Notes: generated by a model from the letters alone, not told the origin. Positions 8,336-54,376 are shown, numbered from the stretch's first letter. The stretch: 64,000 bases of DNA from an uncultured Gemmatimonadales bacterium (GCA_963825055.1 CAWGSK010000002.1:1-64000); one strand, 5' to 3'. A program made the numbers and translations.

Positions 8336-8539
8336 ATGGAACGCCGGATCACCGGGTATCACCGTGATGAGGAAGGCCACTGGGTGGCCGAACTGGAGTG
8401 CGGGCACACCCAGCACGTGCGGCACGACCCGCCGTGGCAGGTGCGTGACTGGGTAACCACGATGGAAGGCCGGGAAGGCCGGCTTGGCATGCTGCTCGAC
8501 TGCCGGGCCTGCGACGGGCCCGCGCAGACGCGATCGTGA
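8336..8539 (+). CDS. DUF3565-family small protein
   Basis: ITGYHRDEEGHWVAELECGHTQHVRHDPPW...CRAC signature. Confidence 0.85.
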   Translation: MERRITGYHRDEEGHWVAELECGHTQHVRHDPPWQVRDWVTTMEGREGRLGMLLDCRACDGPAQTRS

Positions 8540-8570
8540 TGACGGACAAATTCAACGGGAGGAACGGGCG

Positions 8571-8789
8571 ATGCGGATTCTGATACTGGTTGGGGTATTG
8601 CTGGCGGGGTTTGGCGCCTTCGTGCTGGTCCGGGGGTTCAGCTATACGAAGAATCGGAGTGAGCTCAAGGTCGGCGACTTCTCCGCCACTGTGCAGGAGA
8701 AAGCCAGCATCCCGCCCTGGGTGGGTGGTGTGGCGGTCGCGGCCGGGATCGTGCTGATCGTGGCGGGAGCAGGGAAGCGGCGCACCTAG
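8571..8789 (+). CDS. Small two-TM membrane protein
   Basis: GGAGG SD; TM-GFSYTK...KVGD...IPPWVGG-TM. Confidence 0.75.
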   Translation: MRILILVGVLLAGFGAFVLVRGFSYTKNRSELKVGDFSATVQEKASIPPWVGGVAVAAGIVLIVAGAGKRRT

Positions 8790-8793
8790 AAGG

Positions 8794-9255
8794 CTACCCG
8801 CATAACATGCTCGTCTCCCGCCACGGGGCCGCAAACCGCCCCCGTACGGCGGGGAGGCCCGGGAAGGTGAGATCCATCCATCCCCGCACCGTGTCGTGCG
8901 GCATCGGGGCGTTGAACTCGACCTGCGCCTTGTCCGCGGGTACGCAGTCACGCTCTCCGCGACACCAGAAGGCGCTTCCCCTGTCGCTTCCGTCGAGCGT
9001 AATGACCTGTCCGGGGAGGCCCTGCGGGGCCGCATAGACGGTCACCTGCACCCTCGGGTATGCACTCCCCAGGGTGTCTGACGCCTCGCGAGAGAGGTAG
9101 ATGGATGTTGCCGGACCATCTGCCGGTCCGCACTCGAGCTGGGCGAGGGCCCCCGGGAAGCCGGCGATGTCCCCGGTGGGAGGCGCGGGATGGTCACTGC
9201 AGGCGCCCAGACAGCAGGCCAGAATGGCAACCGCCTCCCGCGAGACGGCGCTCAT
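8794..9255 (-). CDS. Hypothetical lipoprotein, paralog of 10730..11179
   Basis: Lipobox LGAC; ATGA overlap with the upstream amidohydrolase stop; ends LCG. Confidence 0.7.
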   Translation of the reverse strand: MSAVSREAVAILACCLGACSDHPAPPTGDIAGFPGALAQLECGPADGPATSIYLSREASDTLGSAYPRVQVTVYAAPQGLPGQVITLDGSDRGSAFWCRGERDCVPADKAQVEFNAPMPHDTVRGWMDLTFPGLPAVRGRFAAPWRETSMLCG

Positions 9256-10598
9256 CGATCAGGCTCCACCAGCGCAGAACCCACCGGCTTCCCGTCCCGC
9301 TTGTAGACCACACCATCCTTCATCACGAATACAGGTGTTTCGAGCCGGGTGACATCGCGGAGTGGATCGCCAGGTACCGCGACGACGTCCGCCAGCTTGC
9401 CTGGTGCGAGGGTGCCCACCCGGTCCTCCCAGCCGAACAGGCGCGCCGCGCTGCCCGTTCCCGCCACGATCGACTCCATGGGCGTCAGTCCGCCCCACTG
9501 CACCATGAGCGTGAACTCGTGGCCATTGGTGCCGTGCTTTCCCACGCCCGCATCGGTGCCGAGGGCGATCGGGACGCCCGCCCGCTTTGCGATGTGGACG
9601 GCGTTCTTCATCGCGTTGCCCGCGGCCGTCGCCTTCTCCGCACGGTGCCCGGTCAGGACGCCCTGGTCCACCAGGCGGAGCACCGTTTCGCCGGCGCTCA
9701 GGGTCGGGACGAGAAACGTGCCGTGTTCCGCCATCAGCTTGGCGCCCTCCTCGTCCAGGAAGGACCCGTGCTCGATCGAGGCGACCCCCGCCCGGGTGGC
9801 GATCTTGATCCCCTCGGTACCGTGGGCGTGCGCCGCGACCTTCCGCTCCAGCTTGGTTGCTTCCGCGACCATCGCCTGCAGCTCCTCCAGCGTGTACTGG
9901 GGCACACCCACGGCGTCACCCTCGCTCAGCACACCGCCGGTGGCGCAGGTCTTGATCACCTGCGCGCCATGCTTGGCCTGATACCGCACTGCCGCGCGGA
10001 CCTGGTCCGGGCCATCGGCAATGCCGGTCTGGACGGTGCCTTCCACGATGCCCGGCTTGAACCCGTTTTCATCGCAATGGCCACCCGTGATCCCGAGGGC
10101 CCAGCCGGCCGGCAGGATACGCGGGCCGGCGACGTAGCCGCCGTCGATCGCTTCCTGCAACGCGACGTCCCCGAAGTCCCGGCTGCCGACGACCCGTACG
10201 CTGGTGAAGCCCGCGAGCAGTGTGCGCATGGCGTGCTGGACGCCGAGGGCGGACTCGAAGCCCGCCAGGTCCCGCACCGCCGCGTTGTCCCACCCCGGTT
10301 CGCCCAGCTCCCGGCCGAGCAGGTGGACATGGGCGTCGAGGAACCCTGGCAGCAACGTGGCGTCGCCCAGGTCGATTGTCGTGGCGCCGGCGGGAATGGA
10401 CACCCCGGAGGCAGGCCCGACCGCCACGATCCGGTTCCCGCGCACCACAACCACGCCGTTTGCCACCGGCGCGGAGCCGGTACCGTCGATCAGCCGGGCC
10501 GCGCGGAGAACTACTGTCGAGTCTGCGGAGGCTGGCTGCTGGGCGGGAAGGGAAGGCGCAAGGGTGGAGAGGAACAGGAGCAGGGGCAGGAGGCGCAC
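9252..10598 (-). CDS. Secreted metal-dependent amidohydrolase (Xaa-Pro dipeptidase-like)
   Basis: Signal peptide; LLPGFLDAHVH, IKTCATGG, AHAHG, SIEHG, GTD, GKLAD motifs. Confidence 0.9.
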   Translation of the reverse strand: MRLLPLLLFLSTLAPSLPAQQPASADSTVVLRAARLIDGTGSAPVANGVVVVRGNRIVAVGPASGVSIPAGATTIDLGDATLLPGFLDAHVHLLGRELGEPGWDNAAVRDLAGFESALGVQHAMRTLLAGFTSVRVVGSRDFGDVALQEAIDGGYVAGPRILPAGWALGITGGHCDENGFKPGIVEGTVQTGIADGPDQVRAAVRYQAKHGAQVIKTCATGGVLSEGDAVGVPQYTLEELQAMVAEATKLERKVAAHAHGTEGIKIATRAGVASIEHGSFLDEEGAKLMAEHGTFLVPTLSAGETVLRLVDQGVLTGHRAEKATAAGNAMKNAVHIAKRAGVPIALGTDAGVGKHGTNGHEFTLMVQWGGLTPMESIVAGTGSAARLFGWEDRVGTLAPGKLADVVAVPGDPLRDVTRLETPVFVMKDGVVYKRDGKPVGSALVEPDR

Positions 10599-11288: not shown

Positions 11289-12359
11289 TCATGATCGAGA
11301 GGCCGGCCATTGCTGTGTGACGCAGTGGAACGCGCCGAGGCCCCACACGAGGTCCACCGCATCGACGGGCACCACCCGCCGGGCGGGGAAGAGGTCCTGG
11401 AGAATCCCGCGCGCCTGCTCGTCGCGCGGCGGGTCGTAGGCGGGCAGCAGGACGACGTCGTTGCCGATGTAGAAGTTCGCGTAGCTGGCCGGGAGTCGCT
11501 GGCCATCCTGGTACATCGGGCGCGGCATGGGCAGGTCCACGATCCGGAACGGCCGCCCCGCCTGGTCCCGCATCGACTCGAGGCGCTTCCGGTTCTCCCG
11601 AAGCGGGGCGTAGTTCGCGTCTGCCGGGTCGTCTTCCGTCACGGTCACCAGGGTGGCGGGATCGGTGAACCGCGTCAGGTCATCCACATGGCCGTCGGTA
11701 TCGTCACCCTCGATGCCGTCGCCCAGCCAGAGAATGTGGGTGACGCCGAGGTAGTCACGGAGATACTGCTCGATGTCCGCCCGGGTGAGCGACGGGTTCC
11801 GGTTCGGATTGAGCAGGCACGCCTCGGTGGTGAGCAGGGTGCCCTCGCCGTTGACGTCGATCGACCCGCCCTCCATCACGATGCCGGGGTGGAACACCCG
11901 GAGTCCGTACTCCTCCCCGATCCGGGTCGGAATGACGTCGTCCTGGTCCCAGGGCGGGTACTTCCCGCCCCAGGCGTTGTAGCGCCAGTCCACGATGGCC
12001 TGCTCCCGAGTCCCATGCATCTCGCGGTTGATGAAGATGGGCCCGTGGTCGCGGCACCAGGCGTCATCGGTGGGATTGTGATGGAAGAACACCCGGTCCA
12101 TCACCGCCCCACGGTTCACGAGGAGGCGACGGACACCGTCCTCCATGTCCGGCCCGTTCACGTTGATGTGGACTTCCTCGCCGGGGGAGAGCAGGCTGAC
12201 CATCTCGGCAAAGATCCCCGGCACCGGCGCGAACTTGTCGGGCCAGGAGGCTGCCTTGTGTGGCCAGCTGAGCCACGTGCCGCGGTGGGGGGCCCACTCG
12301 GCCGGCATGCGGAAACCGAGTCGGGCCGGGGGAACGTCGGTGGGAAGGGCGTCGGCCAC
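11289..12359 (-). CDS. aguA: Agmatine deiminase
   Basis: RMPAEW, DAWCRDHGP, MEGGSID, DDTDGHVD, ASYANF, GAFHCVTQQ. Confidence 0.93.
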   Translation of the reverse strand: MADALPTDVPPARLGFRMPAEWAPHRGTWLSWPHKAASWPDKFAPVPGIFAEMVSLLSPGEEVHINVNGPDMEDGVRRLLVNRGAVMDRVFFHHNPTDDAWCRDHGPIFINREMHGTREQAIVDWRYNAWGGKYPPWDQDDVIPTRIGEEYGLRVFHPGIVMEGGSIDVNGEGTLLTTEACLLNPNRNPSLTRADIEQYLRDYLGVTHILWLGDGIEGDDTDGHVDDLTRFTDPATLVTVTEDDPADANYAPLRENRKRLESMRDQAGRPFRIVDLPMPRPMYQDGQRLPASYANFYIGNDVVLLPAYDPPRDEQARGILQDLFPARRVVPVDAVDLVWGLGAFHCVTQQWPASRS

Positions 12360-49115: not shown

Positions 49116-49334
49116 ATGGCGAAAGAAGAAGGTATTGAGATGGAAGGGGTGGTGACCGAGGTCCTGCCCGACCGCAACTACCGCGTGCTGCTGGAGAACG
49201 GCCATTCCGTCCTGGCCTACGCGGCGGGCAAGATGAGCAAGCACAAGATCCGGGTGCTCGAGGGTGACCGGGTCAGCGTGGTCCTCTCCCCCTATGACCT
49301 CACCCGCGGGCGCGTGATCTACCGGCACAAGTAG
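49116..49334 (+). CDS. infA: Translation initiation factor IF-1
   Basis: [13 protein letters not shown]...LENGH...GKM...IRVLEGDRV...[20 protein letters not shown]. Confidence 0.97.
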
Positions 49335-49355: not shown

Positions 49356-49390
49356 AAAAGCGGGCCGCTCCCTCGGGAGCGGCCCGTTCT
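49356..49390. terminator. Terminator between convergent infA and csp
   Basis: Stem GCGGGCCGCTCC/GGAGCGGCCCGT; AAAA on the left gives a U-tract on the minus strand. Confidence 0.8.
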
Positions 49391-49413: not shown

Positions 49414-49626
49414 TTACGGTGCGCGCGTGACGTTCTCGGCGGCCGGACCCTTCGCGCCCTCAACGATGTCGAACTCGACCTTGTCGCCCTCGGCGAGGCT
49501 GCGGAATCCGTCCATCTTGATGGCCGAATGATGAACGAAGCAGTCCTTCGTGCCGTTCTCGGGCGTGATGAAGCCGAAGCCCTTCGCGTCGTTGAACCAC
49601 TTCACAGTACCTGTGGTGCGTGCCAT
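49414..49626 (-). CDS. cspA: Cold-shock protein
   Basis: [39 protein letters not shown]. Confidence 0.95.
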
Positions 49627-49817
49627 ACTTGCCTAACTCCTGTGATGGTAACGTGGTCGGGGTGGGTCCAGCCGCACGGCCGACCTGACATAAGACGGGC
49701 CTTTCCCGCCTCATGAGCTGAAAATACGAAATGAACCTGAGGTTCTTGTCGTGAGCCTTGTCGGTTTGCCCTGCTTGAGTCGCGCGGTAGGAAAATCCCC
49801 TCGCTCAGCCAGACAAC

Positions 49818-49846
49818 AAATTTCCACCCCGTACCCGTTTCGTCAA
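49818..49846 (-). promoter_or_regulatory. Putative csp promoter, implying a ~185-nt 5' UTR
   Basis: TTGACG-17 bp-AAATTT on the minus strand; the -35 box contains the kinase TGA stop. Confidence 0.5.
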
Positions 49847-51660
49847 GGTTTGGGGTTTTCGGGATCTGTTCCCCGGTCCCCCGGTTCCTGGAAGAGGGAG
49901 CGCGCGGCGGCGAGCCAGGCGGCGCCGCGCGAAGGCAGGCTGGGCCCCGTCCCTTCCTGCACGGCCTGCAGGAACTCGGCTGCCGTGGTGAAACGCTCAC
50001 TGACCACGGCCCGGATCGCCCGCTCGAGGGCTGCCGCCAGCGCCTCGGGGACGTCTGGGCGCTCCCGGCGGAGGTCAGGGACGCGGTTCGTCGCCTGTCG
50101 GGCGAGTACCTGCTCGGGGGTGTGGCCGGGGAAAGGCGAATGGCCGAGCAGAAGGAAGTACGCGACCGCCGCGACGCTGTAGAGGTCCGACCGCTGGTCC
50201 ACCCGCTCCCCCAGCAACTGCTCGGGGCTTGCATACTGCGGCGTCCCGCTCTGGCTGGTGGCCCCGCCGAAGCGTCCCTGGCCGCGGAGTGCCAGGGCGA
50301 GTCCGAAGTCGGTGATCCGGAGCCCGCCGTCCGGGGCGATCAGCATATTCTCGGGCTTGATATCGCGGTGGACCAGCCCGGCCGCGTGGGCGGATATCAG
50401 CGCGCTCAGGGCCTCCTTGAGGAGGTCGACGACCCGCGGTAGAGGCTGGGCACCCTCCCGCTCCACCACCTGTGCGAGGTTCGGGCCCGAGATGAGCTCC
50501 ATCGTGTACCAGATCAGGCCGGACCGACCGCCGATGTCGTAGATGTCCACGATGTTCGGGTGGGTCAGCCGGGCGGCGAGCTGGGCTTCGCGACGGAACC
50601 GCTCGACAACCGCGGGGTCGGTCGTCAGCAGGGGATGGAGCACCTTGAGGGCGACTTCGCGCTCGAGGTGGAGGTCGCGCACGCGATACACCCGGCCGAA
50701 GCCGCCCGCGCCCAGCTGGGCGAGAAGCTCGTAATCGTCCCCCAGCGCGCGCCGCAGCCGCTTCTCCCAGTTGCGCCCATCCTCGACCTCGCGCGGCCGC
50801 TCAGTGCTCACGGTCAGGATCGGCGGGTTCTCCACCAGGCCGGCCTCGCTGGAGAAGTCCTCCAGCATTTCCGCTGCAGTCATGTAGCGGTCTTCCGGGT
50901 CGGCCTGCAGAGCCCGGAGGATGATCCGCTCCACCGCGCCGGGGCAGTTTGGGCGGAGTTCGCGGGGCGGGATGATGGCGCCGGGGTCGGCCGGGGGCTC
51001 CACCGCGGTCACCGCGTAGTAGATAATGGCGCCGGCGGCGTAGAGATCGCTCGCAGGATCGCCCACGGCGCCGCCGCGGATCTCGGGGGCCATGAATGTC
51101 GCTCCCACCGGCTGTACGCCCTCCGGTATGGCGGACAGGGTCCAGCTCGCGTAGCGCAGGTCGGTGACGGTGCCGTGACCGCTTCCGTTGACGATGAGGG
51201 AGTTGGGCACCACCCGCCGGATGATGAGCCCGTTGGCGTGCGCATGCTCCATCGCGCTCAGCACGTCCCGCGCGAGGATGTGGACGCTGGGCAGTGGTCG
51301 TGGGCTCCGCCGGACCGCCTCCTCCAGGCTCTCACCCTCGATCCAGTTGCCGACCCGGAACGCCACCTTGTCGATTATGCCCGTGTCATACACGTGCCGG
51401 ACCGCGGGATGGTCGAGCCGGGCGAGCGCCTCGGCTTCCCGCATGAACCACGCCCGTACCGGCGGGTCCCCGTGGAAGTGCGCGCGCAGGCTCACGTGCC
51501 TCTGCAGGGTGAGGTCATAGGCACGGAACAGGGCCCGCTCGCGCGAAACGGCGACGAGGTTGCGCACCCGGTAACGGTGGCCGAAAATCTCTTCCGCCCG
51601 CTTGAAGTACACGGGTGGCGGGAGGGTGTGGCCGCCGGTCTGGTGCCCCGGGGTAGTCAT
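49843..51660 (-). CDS. Ser/Thr protein kinase with N-terminal pseudokinase and C-terminal intact kinase domain
   Basis: Domain 2 has GAGGFG, VALK, HRDIKPEN, DFG, GTPQYASPE; domain 1 has VSLR, IRRVVPNS, DLR, FMAPE; ATGA overlap with the upstream gene. Confidence 0.92.
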   Translation of the reverse strand: MTTPGHQTGGHTLPPPVYFKRAEEIFGHRYRVRNLVAVSRERALFRAYDLTLQRHVSLRAHFHGDPPVRAWFMREAEALARLDHPAVRHVYDTGIIDKVAFRVGNWIEGESLEEAVRRSPRPLPSVHILARDVLSAMEHAHANGLIIRRVVPNSLIVNGSGHGTVTDLRYASWTLSAIPEGVQPVGATFMAPEIRGGAVGDPASDLYAAGAIIYYAVTAVEPPADPGAIIPPRELRPNCPGAVERIILRALQADPEDRYMTAAEMLEDFSSEAGLVENPPILTVSTERPREVEDGRNWEKRLRRALGDDYELLAQLGAGGFGRVYRVRDLHLEREVALKVLHPLLTTDPAVVERFRREAQLAARLTHPNIVDIYDIGGRSGLIWYTMELISGPNLAQVVEREGAQPLPRVVDLLKEALSALISAHAAGLVHRDIKPENMLIAPDGGLRITDFGLALALRGQGRFGGATSQSGTPQYASPEQLLGERVDQRSDLYSVAAVAYFLLLGHSPFPGHTPEQVLARQATNRVPDLRRERPDVPEALAAALERAIRAVVSERFTTAAEFLQAVQEGTGPSLPSRGAAWLAAARSLFQEPGDRGTDPENPKP

Positions 51661-52199
51661 CGGCTCGTGCGACGCCGCTCGATGCGCAGGCCAGCGCCGC
51701 AGGTGGCGGGTCGGCAGCAGACGCGGGTCTGCTCGGGAGTCGTGTCGACCAGAAAGAGGGTGCAGTCCTCGCCCAGGCAACGCCGCACGATGGCCGATGG
51801 GTCGGCGAGGGTGTGGGCGGCCGAGCGGGCGATGGCGTCGAGGGCCGTTGGCGACTGGGCCGGCGTGAACTGCTGCCGCCACTGGCCGCCGGTCCGCACC
51901 AGCTGATGGCAGCCGGGCGTGGCCGCCAGCACCGAATTAATGGCGGTGATTGAGGCGGTGGGGACCGGCTTCTTCTCGTTGAGTGCAGTGGCGAGGCGGG
52001 TCAGGTGGTCGCGGAACTCGAGGACGTCGGCCAGGCGCACCAGGTCGGCGTCGGAGGTGAGCTTTTCGGCCTTCACCCAGCGGTGGTAGGCCGCGACGTC
52101 AGTCAGTCGCTCCCGCGCCTCGTCTCCCGTACCGCGTGGCGTGTTGATGAAGTCCGTCCAGATGGCATCGCCGAGGAGGACGAACTCAGGATCCGGCAT
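51657..52199 (-). CDS. ABATE / CGNR zinc-finger domain protein
   Basis: DFINT, FRDHL; C-terminal RRCLGEDC..FLVD...RVCC...CGAG. Confidence 0.82.
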   Translation of the reverse strand: MPDPEFVLLGDAIWTDFINTPRGTGDEARERLTDVAAYHRWVKAEKLTSDADLVRLADVLEFRDHLTRLATALNEKKPVPTASITAINSVLAATPGCHQLVRTGGQWRQQFTPAQSPTALDAIARSAAHTLADPSAIVRRCLGEDCTLFLVDTTPEQTRVCCRPATCGAGLRIERRRTSR

Positions 52200-52202
52200 G
52201 GT

Positions 52203-53543
52203 TCAGTGATCCTCCGCAATCTCCACCGAGTTGCGTCCGCCGCGCTTTGCGGCGTAGAGCGCTTCGTCGGCGGCGGCCAGGACTTCGTCCACGGTCGTCC
52301 CGTGGCGCGGGGCCGAGGCAAGCCCGAGGCTGACCGTGCGCCGGCCGAACTCGGGGTGGTTCGCCTCCATCTCGGCGATGTCCTTGAGAGCGCGTGCCAC
52401 GTAGACCATCGCCTCCTGCGGCGTGGTCATCGGCAGGATCACGAGGAACTCGTCCCCGCCGAGGCGCCCCACGACGTCCAGGGCGCGGCCCTGCTGTCGA
52501 AGGATCCGGCCGATCAGGATGAGGAGACGGTCACCCGCGGCGTGCCCCAGCGTGTCGTTCACCTGCTTGAACCGGTCCACGTCGAGCAGGACGATGGTCG
52601 TGTGCAGCTGGTGCCGCTGGGCGCGGGAGATCTCCGCGCCCAGCCGCTGCTCGATGGCGCGACGATTGTAGAGGCCCGTGAGCTCGTCGGTCGTGGCGGC
52701 ACTGTGCAGTTGCTCGACGAGGTGCGCATTCTTGAGCGCGATCGCGGCGGCGAATGCCAGGGTTCCCGCCAGCTCGAACTCCGGGGCGCCGTAATCCTTC
52801 CCCGAAATCCGGGTCCCCAGAGCCAGCACCGCCAGGCGTTCCGGGCCGGAATCAAGCGAGATCGTCACGCGGGTCCGGGGGTCTGCCAGCCTGGCGAGGC
52901 CGACCTCTTCAGCGTGGACCGGCGAGGACCCCACCGGGAACGCCGCGTCCAGCTTCTCCACCACGATCGGCTGGGGACGACCCTCCTCGCCGACGGCGCG
53001 GTAGACATGCGGGACATACATCCCCTTCTCCGGCCGGTACAGGCAGGCCCACCAGGCGAAGAACACCTCAGCCATGAAATCCATGATCAGCTGTTCGGTC
53101 TCGCCGATCGAGTGGACCGACGACAGGAGCCGGGCCACCTGGCGCAGGGCGCGGAGCTGGAAGGCCGCGTCGTCCAGGGCTGCCTGGCGGTCCAGCAGGA
53201 CCCCGCGGAGCTCGATCACGACCGAGAGCCCCAGGGCCATCGGCATGACCACGGCCTGAAGCTCCGACGCGATGTCCTTGGCGGCGTAAACGCTGACGGT
53301 GGCCTCGCCACTGCCGATCCGGCAGATCTGGACGGCGTCTGCCGGACGGCTGGACGGGCCGATCGCAATGACCGGCCCGGTCGGGCTCGAGACGTTCAGC
53401 CAGACACCGTCGTGCCGGAAGCGCCGCGCCAGCGCGTCCCGGCACCGTTCGAACAGTTCACGTTCGGAACGGGCGTCGCGGCAGGCCGCCACAAAGGCGC
53501 TGGAGAGGTGCTCCACCGAGGGCACAAGCGGCGGGTGATCCAT
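52203..53543 (-). CDS. GAF-like sensor + GGDEF diguanylate cyclase
   Basis: TDELTGLYNRR, DVDRFKQVNDTLGHAAGD, RALD I-site, RLGGDEF, AADEALYAAK. Confidence 0.93.
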   Translation of the reverse strand: MDHPPLVPSVEHLSSAFVAACRDARSERELFERCRDALARRFRHDGVWLNVSSPTGPVIAIGPSSRPADAVQICRIGSGEATVSVYAAKDIASELQAVVMPMALGLSVVIELRGVLLDRQAALDDAAFQLRALRQVARLLSSVHSIGETEQLIMDFMAEVFFAWWACLYRPEKGMYVPHVYRAVGEEGRPQPIVVEKLDAAFPVGSSPVHAEEVGLARLADPRTRVTISLDSGPERLAVLALGTRISGKDYGAPEFELAGTLAFAAAIALKNAHLVEQLHSAATTDELTGLYNRRAIEQRLGAEISRAQRHQLHTTIVLLDVDRFKQVNDTLGHAAGDRLLILIGRILRQQGRALDVVGRLGGDEFLVILPMTTPQEAMVYVARALKDIAEMEANHPEFGRRTVSLGLASAPRHGTTVDEVLAAADEALYAAKRGGRNSVEIAEDH

Positions 53544-53610
53544 GGGCGCCAATATAGCCCCGCCCGTAGCCGTAAGGGAGGCATGGATTTAGGCGATTGT
53601 GCCCGGGGGG

Positions 53611-53639
53611 TTGTGATCCGGGACCGACCAGGGTACATT
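53611..53639 (+). promoter_or_regulatory. Sigma-70 promoter of the candidate sRNA
   Basis: TTGTGA-17 bp-TACATT. Confidence 0.6.
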
Positions 53640-53646
53640 CCACTCC

Positions 53647-53759
53647 GGAATACGACATAGCCCCTCGGGGCCCCAGGGATAGGCCAACAGCCTGGGTGAT
53701 GAATTCTGCAAGGCCAGATGCTCCCGGTCGCGATAACTCGCGAACCGGGATTTTTCTTT
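53647..53759 (+). ncRNA. Candidate small non-coding RNA (~110 nt)
   Basis: Promoter upstream, internal hairpins, terminator stem with TTTTTCTTT; both flanking genes are on the minus strand. Confidence 0.5.
53722..53759 (+). terminator. Intrinsic terminator, plus-strand polarity
   Basis: TCCCGGT-CGCGA-TAAC-TCGCG-A-ACCGGGA followed by TTTTTCTTT. Confidence 0.8.
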
Positions 53760-53764
53760 CCCGC

Positions 53765-54376
53765 CTACCTGCCCCCGTCCAGCGCCCGGCGCAGCGTCGC
53801 CACGAGGCCCCGCAGTTCGGCCAGCATTTCCCGGCGGTCCCAGGTGGTACGTGCCTGCAGCGCCTCGAGCAGGAGGCCGTGCCACCAGAGCAGTTCTTCG
53901 GCGCTCGCCTCGGAGATCGAGGGGAGGTACTCGGGCCCGAGCCTCCGGACGTCCGCCACGAGGGACCCGCACAGGTGGATCTCGCTCGCCACGCAGACAT
54001 CAAGGGCGCGGGCGCAGGAAGTTGCCAGCTGGGCCAGGTACTCCATCTTCCACGCCCCCCAGGGACGCGTCCCGCCCCGGTGATCGGTGCGCGGCTCGCA
54101 TGCATCCGCCAGCGTGGTGATCACGACGGAGCCGAACTTGTCCGCAATCTTGTGCCGGATCATCACCTGGTCGTCGCGGGCCGTGGCCGCAAGGACGGGG
54201 TGGAGGATCCCGCTCACGATGGTGGGATCGTCGCAGTCGTACCGTGCCAGGATGACGGCGAGGTGTGACGGATGCGTGCGGTAGGACAGCCCCGTGGCAG
54301 TGCGGCCGGGCAGGGCGTAGTACTTGGCCGCGAACGCCAGGGCGTGATTAATGGTGTCGCTGTACCCGCTTCTCAT
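53765..54376 (-). CDS. RelA/SpoT-type HD-domain (Mesh1/SAH-like) protein with degenerate active site
   Basis: ALAFAAK...R...Y.THP..LAVIL...D...GILHP...KFG..V; HD replaced by HP. Confidence 0.75.
   Translation of the reverse strand: MRSGYSDTINHALAFAAKYYALPGRTATGLSYRTHPSHLAVILARYDCDDPTIVSGILHPVLAATARDDQVMIRHKIADKFGSVVITTLADACEPRTDHRGGTRPWGAWKMEYLAQLATSCARALDVCVASEIHLCGSLVADVRRLGPEYLPSISEASAEELLWWHGLLLEALQARTTWDRREMLAELRGLVATLRRALDGGR

Follow-up and report, generated by a model that had tools for sequence, protein, structure and literature searches.

A conserved operon joining genes for a diguanylate cyclase, a diverged ABATE/CGNR zinc-finger protein and a pseudokinase-kinase fusion in Gemmatimonadales

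In the SiaABCD system of Pseudomonas aeruginosa, the small protein SiaC binds and activates the diguanylate cyclase SiaD, and SiaB phosphorylates SiaC (PMC7278518; also PMC8457831); the cyclase is thus switched according to whether the small protein is phosphorylated (PMC7278518). A second point of reference is the ABATE/CGNR family, a large family for which the only study in the literature that we searched is a structural-genomics paper of 2009; beyond that structure paper and passing mentions, the same literature yielded no tested function. For this family, whose founding member is Jann_2411 of Jannaschia sp. CCS1 (PDB 3H0N; PF07336 and PF11706), a ligand-binding N-terminal domain and a DNA-binding zinc finger have been put forward in the part of PMC2954205 used here, as a proposed function only. 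Here we describe a locus that brings such parts together, in a 64,000-nucleotide stretch of DNA from an uncultured Gemmatimonadales bacterium (GCA_963825055.1, CAWGSK010000002.1:1-64000; this whole stretch is the window, and positions are counted from its first letter). Three adjacent minus-strand genes encode a tandem-GAF diguanylate cyclase, a diverged ABATE/CGNR zinc-finger protein and a soluble fusion of a pseudokinase to a Ser/Thr kinase. The operon that they form is real, conserved and restricted to one lineage, and its zinc-finger gene is optional.

A tightly packed operon and its products

The three genes occupy consecutive open reading frames (ORFs) of the minus strand, namely 52203-53552 with an ATG at 53543, 51657-52199, and 49843-51882 with an in-frame ATG at 51660. 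The original prediction had described them as one packed unit whose junctions are a 3-bp gap and an ATGA overlap, and both were recovered exactly as placed. The cyclase gene (52203..53543, minus strand, stop codon included; 446 amino acids (aa) from the ATG at 53543) leads into the zinc-finger gene (51657..52199, minus strand; 180 aa) through the sequence ...GGAGGATCAC TGA ACC ATG..., with the gap at 52200-52202, and the GGAGG Shine-Dalgarno sequence of the zinc-finger gene sits within the 3' end of the cyclase gene. The next junction, ...GCCG ATGA CT..., joins the stop codon of the zinc-finger gene to the start of the kinase gene (49843..51660, minus strand; 605 aa from the ATG at 51660) in an ATGA overlap at 51660-51657. 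Across 20 loci, the gaps range from -8 to +23 nt between the cyclase and zinc-finger genes and mostly from -4 to +34 nt between the zinc-finger and kinase genes; several larger overlaps at the latter junction, and one frameshifted kinase, are an effect of start-codon calls. Where the zinc-finger gene is missing, the cyclase and kinase genes are separated by -14 to +14 nt in five of six loci.

A promoter-like element, read from the sequence, precedes the cyclase gene (53551..53579, minus strand): TCCCTT and TATATT are spaced by 17 nt, and the element ends 7 nt 5' of the cyclase ATG. Among relatives, a TAT[AT][AT]T box is found 6-10 nt 5' of the cyclase start in most of 26 upstream regions, with or without the zinc-finger gene, and TCCCTT-like bases recur 17 nt ahead of this box; a consensus promoter scan of the region did not list the element. 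The retention of a -10 box so close to the cyclase ATG suggests a dedicated start of a leaderless mRNA. At the other end of the operon, a weak terminator-like hairpin with a 5-pair stem and a T-rich tail lies about 100 nt past the kinase stop codon (49733..49745, minus strand). Because two terminator-like sites were observed in the region against a shuffle mean of 1.9, this hairpin is a candidate at most.

The original identification of a GGDEF cyclase, an ABATE/CGNR protein and a pseudokinase-kinase was borne out by Pfam matches, an intact GGDEF motif and I-site, a canonical second kinase domain and a conserved pseudokinase. The cyclase clears the cut-offs of both Pfam GGDEF (E-value 3.9e-45, 154 bits against 23.8) and TIGR00254 (167.6 bits against 37.4). 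Its catalytic domain spans residues 286-441 (52221..52688, minus strand, by the coordinates of the Pfam match), and a profile search of the bacterium's own genome places the GGDEF match at 52230-52697. The active site (G362-G363-D364-E365-F366, D321, D323, N329, D330 and K433) is invariant in 25 of 25 orthologs, as are R353 and D356 of the I-site RxxD that precedes GGDEF by five residues (RALD-VVGRL-GGDEF in the window). The sensor region, residues 1-280 (52704..53543, minus strand), gave no Pfam match, GAF models included. An AlphaFold2 model built from 25 orthologs, with a predicted local distance difference test score (pLDDT) of 83.3, folds it into a small GAF-like alpha/beta domain, a long helix of 50 residues and a second alpha/beta domain, also GAF; with Foldseek, this model matched the tandem GAF-A/GAF-B domains of PDE2A, PDE5 and PDE6 as well as phytochrome sensory modules, at E-values of 1e-7 to 1e-5. 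Cyclase relatives from another family do give Pfam GAF_3/GAF matches. Because the GGDEF motif, the metal and substrate residues and RxxD are all invariant, the protein is predicted to be an active, product-inhibited diguanylate cyclase; ligand sensing by its GAF domains is likewise predicted, from the model.

In the kinase gene, the C-terminal of the two Pkinase stretches (residues 310-558; 49987..50733, minus strand; E-value 2.6e-44) is a canonical Hanks-type kinase domain with the motifs GAGGFG, VALK, HRDIKPEN, DFG and SPE. G317/G319/G322, K339, E358, H431-R432-D433, N438, D451-F452-G453, T473 and P479-E480 are invariant there in 29 of 29 sequences, and the kinase orthologs share 48-68% identity. 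The N-terminal domain (approximately residues 27-290; 50791..51582, minus strand) is degenerate. When this half of the protein was scanned alone, Pkinase matched at an E-value of 1.9e-10 (41.1 bits against a cut-off of 31.7) over profile positions 45-197 only; the glycine loop is missing, and VSLR, IRRVVPNS and DLR stand where VAIK, HRDxKxxN and DFG are expected. The Lys is thereby replaced with Arg (R59) and HRD with [IV]RR (R148, R149), and the Asp of DFG is retained as D167 in D-L-R. Because the degenerate residues (R59, R148, R149, P152, D167-L168-R169) and the APE motif (A191-P192-E193) are themselves conserved among orthologs, the N-terminal domain, judged by these positions, is a maintained pseudokinase and not a decaying copy. 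A dead kinase domain followed by a live one is also the order found in JAK; such an arrangement is best known from eukaryotes, and the fusion provides a counterpart in bacteria.

An anti-phage kinase was considered and rejected. The scores for MAD6 (233 bits against 460) and PglW (98.5 against 990) are below the cut-offs, the PADLOC matches to PD-T4-6 and mad6 span only the generic kinase domain (residues 304-570), and the surroundings are not those of a defence island, the kinase being a conserved core gene with the housekeeping neighbours cspA, infA and QueC.

That none of the three proteins has an obvious transmembrane segment, as had been noted originally, is nearly right. A single stretch exceeds 1.6 on the Kyte-Doolittle scale (19-residue window), namely residues 97-117 of the cyclase, which reach 1.85. 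Because this stretch is charged, holding E and R, and is modelled as part of the 50-residue helix that joins both GAF-like domains, all three proteins look cytoplasmic.

The zinc-finger protein passes both Pfam models of its family, ABATE with an E-value of 2.7e-19 (70.5 bits against a cut-off of 24.4) and zf-CGNR marginally, with 3.5e-6 (27.1 bits against 24, compared to 65-72 bits in paralogs). A profile of 21 orthologs matches 3H0N alone among solved structures (E-value 1.1e-6), and for the structural model (pLDDT 83.7) 3H0N is the sole Foldseek match at E<=0.001 (E-value 3.9e-5, template modelling score 0.57, 169 columns). The zinc ligands C141, C146, C162 and C167 align with Cys147, 152, 168 and 172 of 3H0N, in the residue numbers given in PMC2954205. 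The family assignment made originally therefore stands for both domains, but the protein has diverged: it does not retain CGNR and the conserved Arg of that motif, with CGAG in the window and CGxxxR[VI]ERRR in the orthologs, although the founding member Jann_2411 itself reads CQNR (PMC2954205). Because neither the motif nor the equivalent of Arg175 is kept, the protein is, by its sequence, filed as a diverged ABATE/CGNR subfamily and not as a canonical member. R159 and the Arg-rich tail R[IV]ERRR are invariant among the orthologs, which fits retained nucleic-acid binding. S126 and T130 are conserved as well and would be candidate sites for phosphorylation.

The context differs as well. In three of the five loci in which a neighbour was called, the ABATE ORF of a sixth locus not having been scanned, canonical ABATE paralogs of the phylum are divergent from adjacent genes for small enzymes (glyoxalase, or ABM/DinB), whereas the gene described here is co-directional with its neighbours inside a cyclase-kinase operon. 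Compared to the canonical paralogs, the embedded subfamily, as far as its sequences tell, has changed in both sequence and context. In metagenomes it accounts for 393 clusters (E<=1e-10); wherever their source is named, it is Gemmatimonadales, in agreement with the phylum presumed in the original prediction.

These properties bear on the simplest view of the protein, that of an ordinary DNA or RNA regulator which binds its own ligand through ABATE, is merely co-expressed with its neighbours and receives no input from phosphorylation or cyclic di-GMP (c-di-GMP). Membership in the family by sequence and fold, the ligand-binding domain and DNA-binding finger proposed in the part of PMC2954205 cited above, the invariant basic tail and the self-sufficiency of the cyclase-kinase pair in loci without the zinc-finger gene all speak for such a regulator. 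We nevertheless consider it unlikely, given a context unlike that of the canonical paralogs examined and a gene placed exactly between two translationally coupled genes and nowhere else in 33 of 33 genomes. Moreover, inspection of the upstream regions by eye, and not with a motif-finding program, revealed no operator-like motif peculiar to loci that carry the zinc-finger gene.

The genome to which the window belongs also contains a second, canonical ABATE/CGNR gene (contig C23, L074:4314-8174; zf-CGNR E-value 5.3e-20). It is arranged tail-to-tail with the gene for a Ser/Thr kinase of 1079 aa that carries TPR repeats, and is divergent from ABM and DinB genes. This neighbourhood may be a second pairing of ABATE with a kinase, possibly a coincidence.

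Conservation, history and a working model

The zinc-finger protein was searched against 401 genomes of the phylum, 166 of them from the same family as the window; the tallies of occurrence for all three genes include the unpublished genomes G057, G157, G182 and G097, and the fetched loci do not. Ortholog-grade matches to the zinc-finger protein (E<=1.9e-29) were found in 61 of the 166 same-family genomes, every other match being of paralog grade (E>=3.1e-13). The sensor region of the cyclase is present in 83 of the 166, all 61 with a zinc-finger ortholog among them, and has only three weak matches outside the family, in family f8. The pseudokinase domain has a match at E<=1e-20 in every one of the 166 same-family genomes, of ortholog grade (E<=1e-54) in 158, and also in five of five genomes of a sister family (E-values 1e-70 to 1e-85). 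Because occurrence is nested in this way, from kinase to cyclase to zinc-finger gene, the double kinase, on the evidence of these matches, is an old core of the whole family.

The three-gene order is conserved wherever a zinc-finger ortholog and its neighbourhood were compared. Cyclase, zinc-finger and kinase genes follow one another in the same order and on the same strand in 29 of 29 loci and, among larger loci (12-20 kb), in 20 of 20, which together represent 33 different genomes (33/33); for the remaining 28 genomes with a zinc-finger ortholog, the coordinates, read by eye, show the genes to adjoin unless a contig end intervenes. There is no locus with the zinc-finger gene and without the cyclase gene. 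This arrangement is far beyond chance.

Twenty further loci, from genera without a zinc-finger ortholog, comprise six cyclase-kinase pairs, four in which a gene for an HD_4 protein directly precedes the kinase gene and 10 with other surroundings, where a YdjM-family gene upstream (three loci) and an ABC transporter or cupredoxin downstream were seen. In a quick maximum-likelihood tree of 40 kinases, from which the frameshifted kinase of locus L040 was omitted, the 30 loci with syntenic context form one clade (support 99 in the Shimodaira-Hasegawa-like approximate likelihood ratio test), and the 10 other-context kinases fall outside it. In this clade the full trio occurs widely; one to three changes account for the cyclase-kinase state and two for the kinase-only state. 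The operon-embedded zinc-finger proteins likewise form one clade (95), which is set apart from the canonical paralogs by a long branch and whose sub-clades mirror the kinase tree. The simplest history compatible with these trees would have the cyclase gene join the kinase gene at the base of one clade and the zinc-finger gene inserted once, inherited vertically and later lost, either alone or with the cyclase gene.

No stop codons occur in the zinc-finger matches. Rough estimates of the ratio of nonsynonymous to synonymous substitution rates (dN/dS) from seven pairs, with dS near saturation, are 0.18-0.46 for the zinc-finger gene, 0.08-0.27 for the cyclase gene and 0.10-0.20 for the kinase gene, and the zinc-finger gene is, by these estimates, under purifying selection. 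Because of the lack of stops, dN/dS below 1, the invariant catalytic motifs and the conserved pseudokinase motifs, we take all three genes to be functional. Alignment A4 consists of the window and 28 of the 34 sequences that passed the filter, L042, L044, L052 and L054 being among those left out; it omits L035, L040, L046, L048, L049, L058, L063 and L065 on account of length, a frameshift or a stop within the coordinates. The kinase of L040 (genome G138, 8376-10059) and the cyclase of L048 (genome G388, 11813-11982) each align as two pieces in different frames, possibly the result of frameshifts or assembly errors.

The reading that we prefer, to which we give about as much credence as doubt, is that of one co-transcribed, probably leaderless operon in which the cyclase and the kinase are coupled in one node, with the zinc-finger protein serving as its accessory output or adaptor. 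Under this model, the tandem GAF domains of the cytoplasmic cyclase would sense a small ligand, the cyclase would be inhibited by its product via the RxxD site, and the N-terminal pseudokinase domain would regulate or scaffold the soluble Ser/Thr kinase, so that cyclase and kinase might act together in signalling. The zinc-finger protein would be a nucleic-acid-binding regulator, set by phosphorylation by the neighbouring kinase, by the c-di-GMP made next door, or by both, and would not be an indispensable third component. If this is so, the cyclase-kinase pair would offer, in a soil phylum that has received little study, a defined example of how Hanks-type phosphorylation and c-di-GMP signalling cross-talk.

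Several observations weigh against this model. The trio, which the original prediction treated as one system, is a tightly packed unit but a divisible one: roughly half of the family has the kinase in other contexts and without both partners, and at least six loci have the cyclase-kinase pair but no zinc-finger gene. The cyclase relatives of family f8 are flanked by phosphofructokinase and S9 peptidase genes, with no kinase. The fourth zinc-binding Cys is missing in three of the 21 zinc-finger orthologs, all from one genus. Compared to the combined group of loci that lack the zinc-finger gene, loci that carry it show no kinase or cyclase residues conserved in them alone; the same comparison against the small cyclase-kinase group gave two residues in each protein, and neither comparison is informative. 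A search among longer proteins turned up no fusion of the zinc-finger protein, which is weak evidence. All genomes come from one bacterial family and hence are not independent, and the conserved order may in part reflect simple descent.

In another view, the three signalling genes have no functional link and stay together by descent, their tight spacing being a matter of genome compaction. Synteny in the family extends over about 14 kb (genes for an M50 protease, SRPBCC/epimerase, QueC, an unnamed product and HD_4, then the trio, cspA, infA and an M3 peptidase gene), and because these surroundings are syntenic too, the conserved order alone is weak evidence of function, weaker than the original prediction assumed; the other neighbours of the kinase in other genera and the origin of all evidence in one family are in accord with this view as well. 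We regard it as very unlikely all the same. In many relatives, 1-7 kb of unrelated genes (for an HtrA-like protease, 5'-nucleotidase, Omp85 or MFS transporters) stand between the HD_4 and cyclase genes, and despite such repeated insertion directly upstream, inserted genes are never found inside the trio. The start/stop overlaps are conserved, the zinc-finger gene never occurs without the cyclase gene, and the cyclase ortholog is never away from the kinase in 26 fetched loci of 12-20 kb, with 13 more in agreement. Finally, the cyclase and zinc-finger genes vanish jointly in two separate lineages of the kinase tree. The unsplit trio, its tiny internal gaps and the kept promoter are stronger evidence than order alone.

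The fixed position of the subfamily between genes for a c-di-GMP synthase and for a Ser/Thr kinase yields concrete hypotheses, in which the zinc-finger protein would be a kinase substrate, a c-di-GMP receptor or a partner of the cyclase. A more far-reaching proposal than the coupled node with an accessory protein, and one that strikes us as quite unlikely, is that the ABATE/CGNR protein is a new c-di-GMP receptor or a partner controlled by the Hanks-type kinase that gates the neighbouring cyclase. This proposal fits because most genomes of the family have GGDEF genes without recognisable PilZ. The window's own genome (87% complete) has 12 GGDEF matches and no PilZ match, and of 61 family genomes sampled at one per genus, only 15 gave a PilZ match. 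If the proposal were true, the widespread ABATE/CGNR family would gain its first function, and a Hanks-type kinase would for the first time be wired directly to c-di-GMP synthesis. If the genes are only co-expressed, this would be an ordinary lineage-specific operon.

Flanking genes and a candidate small RNA

Upstream of the operon and on the same strand lies the gene for the HD_4 protein, 203 aa in length and named for its domain of the RelA/SpoT hydrolase type (53765-54376, minus strand; Pfam E-value 1.3e-7). It is kept beside the operon in most relatives examined, often with inserted genes between, and its product is possibly a small alarmone hydrolase encoded next to a c-di-GMP gene.

A candidate small RNA gene is located at 53611-53760 on the plus strand, divergent from the cyclase gene, with the RNA body at approximately 53647-53758. 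It consists of TTGTGA, 17 nt, TACATT, a conserved body of about 110 nt (ACATAGCCCCTCGGGGCCCCAGGG...CCTGGGTGATGAA) and a final hairpin followed by TTTTTCTTTC. The body is single-copy in the genome and is kept in nine of 21 full-trio loci and in one kinase-only locus; five pairs of the terminator show compensatory changes. Rfam gave no family for this candidate at E<0.7.

On the other side of the operon, cspA (49414-49626, minus strand; 70 aa, CSD E-value 6.9e-32) is followed by a strong terminator (49361-49386, minus strand), and it has a long 5' leader whose weak match to the Rfam cspA thermoregulator, at 44 bits, falls short of the gathering score. Convergent with cspA is infA (49116-49334, plus strand; 72 aa, IF-1 E-value 3.7e-23). 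Conserved small ORFs 3' of the kinase gene (182, 107 and 84 aa) were rejected as members of the operon, being frame shadows of cspA and infA.

Comparison with known systems

The original prediction knew of no described system with this combination, and none was found in the literature that we searched. Searches for a diguanylate cyclase with a Hanks-type kinase and c-di-GMP returned nothing relevant and one unrelated paper, and those for a cyclase, kinase, c-di-GMP and pseudokinase combination in Gemmatimonads nothing on a cyclase/zinc-finger/kinase operon. The main texts of surveys of bacterial Ser/Thr kinases and pseudokinases, searched by term, mention no tandem kinase, Gemmatimonadota or GGDEF; the supplements of these surveys may list the family.

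There is a likeness to SiaABCD, in which one operon likewise encodes a protein kinase, a GGDEF cyclase and a small protein that is not an enzyme. A partner switch of that kind could be imagined here, with the zinc-finger protein binding and switching the cyclase, the kinase setting this binding by phosphorylation and the finger serving protein contacts. Apart from the shared logic of the parts, such a switch would agree with the constant company of the cyclase (61 of 61 genomes with a zinc-finger ortholog), and with the degenerate CGNR motif and the loss of the fourth Cys in one genus, both expected if DNA binding no longer constrains the protein; moreover, SiaD is the best named NCBIfam equivalog of the cyclase, though at 166.3 bits it is below the cut-off of 290. 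However, there is no homology to any Sia component: the kinase belongs to the Hanks type and is not SiaB-like, and the small protein is ABATE and not SiaC-like. The operon contains no phosphatase gene, PP2C having no match on this contig and three in the genome, all on other contigs. The invariant Arg-rich C-terminus suits nucleic-acid binding, and no cyclase residues track the presence of the small protein. We therefore find a Sia-like switch distinctly improbable and treat the resemblance as one of logic only, the locus falling outside the definition of a Sia module.

The individual products resemble known proteins more closely. The C-terminal kinase domain has every Hanks motif of PknB-type kinases, and among NCBIfam models the Stk1/PknB kinase domain fits it best, but in contrast to PknB-type kinases the protein has no membrane segment and no PASTA, FHA or TPR domains, and it scores below every NCBIfam equivalog cut-off. 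The cyclase is akin to GAF-GGDEF cyclases with a PleD/WspR-type catalytic domain in the GGDEF motif, the metal-binding Asp residues, RxxD and the tandem-GAF sensor, and differs from them in a sensor that Pfam GAF models miss and in a next gene that is always that of a Hanks-type kinase, or the zinc-finger gene and then the kinase gene. The zinc-finger protein shares with Jann_2411 the two-domain build, the four Cys ligands and an Asp equivalent to Asp158; compared to that protein, it has lost the equivalent of Arg175 and has one additional residue between the last two Cys. Each of these domain families is known, and the operon is a new combination of known signalling parts.

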